Assembly: GCA_951406725.2 (NCBI GenBank)
Contig: OX597818.1
Coordinates: 20,150,001 to 20,214,000, forward strand
Length of the DNA stretch: 64,000 nt
Direction: 5' to 3'
DNA from: Octopus vulgaris
Taxonomy: Eukaryota
In this document: one piece after another, positions 27,397 to 27,538 of the stretch
Position numbering within the stretch: the first letter of the stretch is position 1
Layout of the letters: each line of letters starts with the position of its first letter
The notes under the pieces: generated by a model
Told to the model about the DNA's origin: nothing
Database searches by the model: none
Seen by the model: the letters and a program-made list of their open reading frames with translations, nothing else
Position numbers and translations under genes: made by a program

Positions 27397-27538
27397 TATT
27401 AAAGATGCTAAATTATCACAGGACTGTTACTCAGAGTTTCACGTTCCCGTTCGTCCGACAGTTGTGATTACAACTGTCGGACGAACGGGAACGTTAAACT
27501 CTGAGTAACAGTTGTGTGATAATTTTGCAGCTGTAATA
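27397..27538. ncRNA. Palindrome (~69-bp arms, 4-nt centre) made of two head-to-head hammerhead motifs with a CGGACGA variant core
   Basis: Minus arm: ACUGU-CGGACGA-ACG ggaa CGU-GAAA-CUC u GAG-UA-ACAGU. The plus arm is the same with an 8-bp helix I but UAAA instead of GAAA. AATAAA follows the plus arm. Confidence 0.7.

Follow-up and report, generated by a model that had tools for sequence, protein, structure and literature searches.

A lopsided hammerhead palindrome in Octopus vulgaris, probably a twin-primed insertion of a Hydra-clade Penelope-like element

Penelope-like elements (PLEs) of the Hydra clade are defined by the motifs RWK and DKT, a CxCx5C linker, and CxxC/CxH around E and N (Craig 2021, PMC8557442). 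In the parts of that paper considered here, the clade also has a C-terminal GIY-YIG endonuclease, (TA)n targets and, close to the 3' end, a type I hammerhead whose helix III is a palindrome of 4 bp. An inverted, 5'-truncated copy with a one-sided tail has been published for the clade, and Penelope-13_HM has a hammerhead on each strand. The octopus family described here resembles the clade in these traits. How tandem and inverted structures form is presented in the same paper as an open problem, with the role of the hammerhead unclear. The pseudo-LTR of Penelope holds an internal promoter, according to the portion of Schostak 2008 (PMC2377424) used here. In vitro, Poseidon PAc nicks and extends both strands, with two internal start sites that bound the tail; it is predicted to be dimeric and does not need hammerhead cleavage (Frangieh 2024, PMC11167929, in the sections considered).

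The window, i.e. the whole 64,000-nt stretch of O. vulgaris DNA analysed here, contains two arms of 73 nt each (27393-27465 and 27470-27542), which are 90% complementary, with 7 of 73 positions mismatched, and are separated by a centre of 4 nt. As a hairpin, the palindrome reaches -102.5 kcal/mol (z -20.7), a stability equalled by none of 200 shuffled sequences, and the window has two occurrences of the 17-mer CGGACGAACGGGAACGT, versus an expected 0.02. The palindrome and the type I hammerhead topology of both arms, claimed in the original prediction, were confirmed by reading the helices from the sequence. The tailed arm (27470-27542, plus strand) comprises helix I (27470-27477/27508-27515, 8 bp), the core CGGACGA with G at position 4 (27478-27484), helix II ACG-GGAA-CGT (27485-27494), U12 at 27495 and helix III ACTCTGAGT (27498-27506), with the cleavage position after A27507; the predicted AATAAA is present beyond the hammerhead at 27535-27540. 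The tail-less arm (27393-27467, minus strand) has its core at 27457-27451, also with G4, an intact G12 at 27440 and then a decayed poly(A)-like AATAGA (27400-27395). U4G in both arms and G12U in the plus arm are hence as first described. The 3' end of the tail-less arm is the tail-less 3' junction of the family, found in young copies after AATAAAG. Positions are numbered with the C of the helix I CTGT as 0, which places cleavage at +34. At the join (27466-27469), the minus arm reaches about -7 and the plus arm -4 to -6; both stop within -15 to +5, the zone where short arms of the family end. A tail of 70 nt (27543-27612) follows the plus arm only, and hence the element extends to 27612 and is lopsided and longer than the palindrome alone: the predicted palindrome stands, whereas its limits, 27397-27538, were too short. 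The insertion is flanked on the left by a (TATG)n/(TG)n microsatellite (27278-27389), the likely target, and on the right by another repeat; no target duplication is readable here. An Rfam scan of 25000-30000 gave no hammerhead family among 20 weak matches, only sub-threshold miRNA-type hairpin matches and one snoRNA match, so that the topology rests on reading of the sequence and its homologues.

Several other repeats lie around the insertion. Outside it, at 27613-27822 (plus strand), is a decayed short copy of a second minimal-hammerhead family, with the core CTGAAGA at 27683-27689; this copy is about 200 nt long, ends in (TA)n and apparently has the shared 5' start. The second family, unrelated to the Penelope family considered here, has 11,330 exact matches in the genome, which among those listed mostly read CCGACGA; a hand count of the best 100 gives 76 C4, 22 U4 and 2 A4. 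Four of six copies begin at a common GTGACC about 85 nt upstream, and no parent ORF of this family was found. Two inverted pairs of dispersed repeats surround the site (25389-25791/29709-30170 and 26361-26485/29039-29163, 83-89%) and look like SINE-type copies in opposite orientation. Elsewhere, a nearly complete LINE with ORF1, AP endonuclease and RT was seen on the reverse strand of L133 (about 1-5555).

A DNA search of the octopus genome returned 698 candidates, and the best 40 of these yielded 82 matches, which mostly fall on the two strands of one and the same place; the palindrome is a dispersed repeat. Its copies share about 70 further bases beyond one arm only, followed by a microsatellite, and the arms also occur singly and in tandem. 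Upstream of the arms we found a long AT-rich UTR and then, in five loci, the same endonuclease end. Among 150 scored matches of a protein search were numerous open frames, the longest of about 727 aa, and in L229-L233 an intact 727-aa ORF, with RT followed by a C-terminal GIY-YIG, is flanked on each side by a copy of the repeat. The tail continues into the start of this ORF, and the unit measures 3,356 bp. Arm and tail of the window align with the repeat flanking the intact ORFs over 135 nt at 75% identity, in agreement with the Penelope origin that had been proposed for the palindrome. The window copy itself has no ORF. The ORF motifs are RRLRWK, SDKT, YRDD, CNCKNESSC and CRLC-LLEK-LNQ-CRH; the protein thus has all the sequence motifs given for the Hydra clade in the consulted part of Craig 2021. 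Pfam and PDB returned no match for the intact ORF, nor did Pfam for four broken fragments, and the motifs point to the Hydra clade. The family also has a pseudo-LTR with an optional tail, in tandem and inverted arrangements, and its young copies end in TATA runs, as in (TA)n insertion. No ORF-bearing copy was found for the old subfamily of the window copy itself, so that the window is linked to its parent through 75-79% identity and the tree described below. On this evidence, the window feature is almost certainly the pseudo-LTR end of a Hydra-clade PLE.

Two earlier leads to the parent were dropped: the Neptune-like RT/EN remnant upstream of L033 and the GIY-YIG remnant upstream of L054 are not continued by other copies. 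An apparent fixed 5' end at 347 nt reflects the limit of the query's homology. A broken Neptune-like RT and endonuclease remnant also lies directly upstream of a Hydra 3' end in L101 (5845-6862), likely a nested insertion. Many intact 727-aa ORFs of the young Hydra-clade family stand in arrays, both tandem and inverted (L229, L230, L231, L232, L233), and this family has probably been active recently. Outside the octopus, a JGI metagenome contig (L321) holds a near-complete Hydra-clade element with a canonical hammerhead in both pseudo-LTRs (260-320 and 3015-3065); its protein is 46% identical, and the hammerhead is at the same place with different helices that still pair. By eye, two short hairpins can be made out in the tail at L230:4782-4852, TACC-NNN-GGTA and CACAT-TT-ATGTG; their loops differ between subfamilies, and they are a candidate protein-binding site between the two start sites.

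In alignment A1, 99.6% of helix cells are paired, forming three helices around the core, and the hammerhead folds as a dimer in prediction when the core is forced open. The original prediction of type I hammerheads with a palindromic helix III is supported. Among family copies, compensatory changes were found in 0 of 11 helix pairs, in preselected rows. Between families, as judged by eye from L321 and File S2 of Craig 2021, the helices differ and still pair. Against the canonical core (CUGANGA, GAAA, UH), the window deviates by a G4 in each arm and by U12 in the plus arm. When position 4 is left free, an exact 28-nt pattern matches 1,468 times in the genome; 1,339 of these matches read CCGACGA and 129 lack C at position 4; the best 100 of the latter, counted by hand, have T in 77, A in 16 and G in 7, the window arm being among the G arms. 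The youngest subfamily, which falls outside this pattern, has CTGATGA (canonical CUGAUGA) in 3,658 arms, with an A-A mismatch at 10.1/11.1, the base of helix II. The core CGGACGA is therefore not the family consensus that it might have been, and both G4 and G12U are rare changes in the family. The G4 copies do not form a subfamily of their own, since six other G4 loci fall in different subfamilies and both informative partners carry C. In a midpoint-rooted tree of 22 tailed arms, built without an outgroup, the youngest subfamily is nested (100/99) among copies with C4, the state of the older subfamilies, and the window arm clusters with one of the older subfamilies that have C4. The lineage with U4, which would have regained it, has lost a helix II pair. 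Beside young copies, L245 (about 657-891) and L253 (about 1-127) carry intermediate hammerheads with a C4 core, in L253 with a GCAA loop, which suggests a stepwise change from CCGACGA/GGAA to CUGAUGA/GCAA. Together, two unrelated hammerhead families account for more than 12,000 exact arms in this genome, mostly U4C (for the second family, among the matches listed). U4C considerably lowers activity in vitro and still allows viroid infectivity, as stated in the part of Perreault 2011 (PMC3088659) at hand. With the consensus core given there, G4 and U12 would be expected to inactivate, and the window copy is accordingly predicted to be inactive as a ribozyme.

The anatomy of the insertions was compared in two sets. 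For the older subfamilies, the best 100 of the 1,468 pattern matches represent 91 loci, 82 of which were compared. An inverted partner was present in 53; in 52 of these one arm is tailed and the other tail-less, and none has two tails. The 5' ends of the 53 partner arms lie at -27 to +1 in 30 cases, further upstream in one and downstream in 22; none ends at the cleavage site (+32 to +36). A whole tail-less arm faces a shortened tailed arm at 17 of 33 loci, the reverse occurring at 4 of 19. Single copies are often tail-less (21 of the 29 loci in which no partner was detected), and the palindrome centres vary among copies. Short tandem arms were met only in single loci, e.g. L045, L141 and L187. 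The two arms of a locus resemble each other beyond expectation: the loop-3 base is identical in 28 of 30 loci versus 38% expected, and, after removal of two complex palindromes, the remaining 29 have 10 rare variants, at 5 loci, that are common to both arms, with 95 private; four of the 10 come from one locus of a rare subfamily. The double G4 of the window is of this shared kind.

For the youngest subfamily, the best 100 of 3,658 arms gave 68 insertions, which were resolved by hand; junctions inside tandems, older neighbours and one third arm were excluded. Among the two-armed insertions, 46 of 49 have one tailed and one tail-less arm, none has two full tails, and the other three have damaged or intermediate ends. 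The 3' ends are at +71 in tail-less and at +142 to +145 in tailed arms; ends 3' of the hammerhead are undercounted, the index arms having been selected for an intact hammerhead. At the other side, 55 of 117 arm 5' ends fall in -15 to +5 and only 4 in -16 to -100. The arms thus pile up against a wall that lies 13-15 nt upstream of helix I. Of the pairs, 28 consist of two short arms and 19 of two long ones; mixed pairs number 2, with about 24 expected. The tail-less arm holds sequence absent from the tailed arm at 7 of 46 loci, and in L294 and L296 exceeds it by 650-750 nt. A CTAG-centred join recurs in L245, L256, L287 and L262. Two insertions 60 kb apart on C1, L307 and L308, have the same join (-4/+4) and were counted as two; a local duplication is possible. 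A 3' splice site was rejected as cause of the wall, as the AG at -8/-7 is missing in most older subfamilies and arms pass it.

L1 inversions arise by twin priming, the extension of two primers that sit on opposite strands of the target, and the minus-strand strong-stop DNA of retroviruses is a short defined product of cDNA that is primed near the RNA 5' end and runs off. We consider it probable that the window feature is an old 5'-truncated inverted insertion of the Hydra-clade element, formed by twin priming with run-off at the RNA 5' end. The element mRNA would begin near -13, where CCATTCT would fit an initiator consensus. The protein, probably a dimer, would nick both strands of the microsatellite and prime one cDNA per start site, so that two reverse transcriptases start at two fixed internal RNA sites (+71 and about +142) on opposite target strands. 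If the 5' leader is bound, both cDNAs would be short, about 85 and 155 nt, run off the RNA 5' end and be joined at their 3' ends into a lopsided palindrome of about 220-240 bp; if the 3' pseudo-LTR is bound, both arms would be long. A single source RNA was likely copied into both arms; this would account for the G4 that they share in the window. The hammerhead would be a passenger on a template that was likely uncleaved. The one-tail rule in both sets, the pairing of short arms with short ones, the wall and the shared variants all argue for such a course, as do the in vitro behaviour of Poseidon PAc and the lack of partner-arm ends at the cleavage site. Contigs compared with the young element and with the window showed no informative ends or joints. 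Later deletion could however yield the arm asymmetry, and arm-to-arm conversion could account for the shared G4.

The wall admits another cause within the same element and the same twin priming. It may be a structural stop on RNAs that extend further 5', with RT ending at the base of a long helix I or the cDNAs annealing at self-complementary CTAG or TTAA. The helix I predicted for the young family pairs down to A(-13), and its coincidence with the wall counts against run-off; the recurrent CTAG-centred join likewise fits a stop of this kind. Yet tail-less arms start at -11/-12 even where the partner is cut at +28, +63 or +85, and independent stops would give the expected number of mixed pairs rather than two, which makes this variant unlikely. 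Still less probable is a snap-back, in which a tailed cDNA folds back and copies itself, with later deletions creating the asymmetry. Such an origin, considered in the original prediction, would account for arms of the same source with shared rare variants, and perfect CTAG-centred palindromes do exist. A copied arm cannot exceed its template, however, as the tail-less arm does in both sets, in L294 and L296 by the large excess given above, and neither the frequent tail-less singles nor the fixed tail-less end at +71 would be expected.

The suggestion that the palindrome is a selected, self-inhibited ribozyme module is not supported. A functional double ribozyme or a locus for hairpin RNA, either retained by the host or multiplying as a non-autonomous unit, would fit the very stable hairpin, and some joins do recur among young copies. 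Against this, the centres vary from copy to copy, the window copy has its arm mismatches and core changes, and the core decays like other positions: in 31 unselected partner arms, non-CpG cells are changed at 9 of 247 core and 34 of 649 other positions (p 0.38, low power). No contig spanning the locus is listed, which is uninformative on expression. We regard a functional locus as very improbable. The chance that the arms are terminal inverted repeats of a MITE, resembling hammerheads by accident, is negligible. The feature is short, palindromic and dispersed like a MITE, but the ends are unequal in 52 of 53 older and 46 of 49 young loci, with a tail on one side, and the arms also occur alone or in tandem and flank the RT/GIY-YIG ORF, a linkage that refutes this reading. 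The original prediction had named inverted repeats of a DNA transposon with a target duplication as its alternative, which they are not. The expected competition between ribozyme folding and a dsRNA hairpin is borne out by a folding comparison, in which the long hairpin would outcompete the ribozyme in read-through RNA. The window lacks a long host-like ORF, and the locus itself is ordinary decayed repeat DNA, one of many such insertions.

Twin priming with run-off may be taken further, tentatively and at somewhat less than an even chance. The insertions would then be a Penelope record of strong-stop synthesis by a dimeric RT acting on both strands from two fixed sites of one uncleaved leader and running off at the cap, with a hammerhead kept weak on purpose and a palindromic helix III perhaps pairing template RNAs rather than cutting. 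If true, Penelope inversions and one-sided tails would be explained in one step. By title and abstract, in mostly open literature, we found no paper that treats Penelope twin priming, a 5' wall in these elements or U4C in their hammerheads (Lunse et al. may list position-4 variants); none of five core-variant terms is present in PMC11014351. Searches based on CUGANGA would overlook C4 families. Having thousands of nearly identical ends and numerous intact 727-aa ORFs, the very young family makes start sites, joins and 5' limits readable to the base, and the model of twin priming with run-off gives exact in vitro predictions. The value of these observations lies in the insertion anatomy and the repeated U4C core, not in the window locus.

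Compared with the described members of the Hydra clade, the octopus family has a tail of 70 nt instead of 30-40 and a unit of 3,356 bp instead of under 3 kb, as well as a 5' wall, which the considered sections of PMC8557442 do not describe for the clade. In the rows of File S2 consulted, its hammerhead differs from all 26 of the Hydra clade, Hydra-1_oBim included; 26 of 26 have U4, in contrast to C4 in the older octopus subfamilies. Hydra-2_aMil in that file agrees with the octopus family in helix I (CTGT/ACAG) and helix III (ACTC-N-GAGT). Schistosoma PLEs, in the part of Cervera and de la Pena 2014 (PMC4209133) considered, also have two nearby hammerheads on opposite strands, a palindromic helix III and dimer-type folding. 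Their dual hammerheads are 100-700 bp apart, whereas the cores in the window are separated by about 20 bp and the family follows a strict tail rule. Poseidon PAc shares with the octopus family a pair of start sites, downstream of the hammerhead, between which the tail lies, nicking of both strands and dispensable cleavage; it belongs to another clade, and inverted insertions and run-off on a 5' leader are not treated in the sections of PMC11167929 used here. Non-LTR retrozymes, in the portion of bioRxiv 10.64898/2026.07.22.740005 available to us, are likewise short PLE-derived sequences with type I hammerheads, but are head-to-tail tandems; the window copy, being inverted and of a family with varying centres, is not one of them. 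Unlike L1 twin priming and strong-stop DNA, the octopus family would prime at fixed internal sites, with both arms copying the same stretch. Opposite-strand hammerhead pairs and one-sided tails have already been published for Penelope; the octopus family itself is new.
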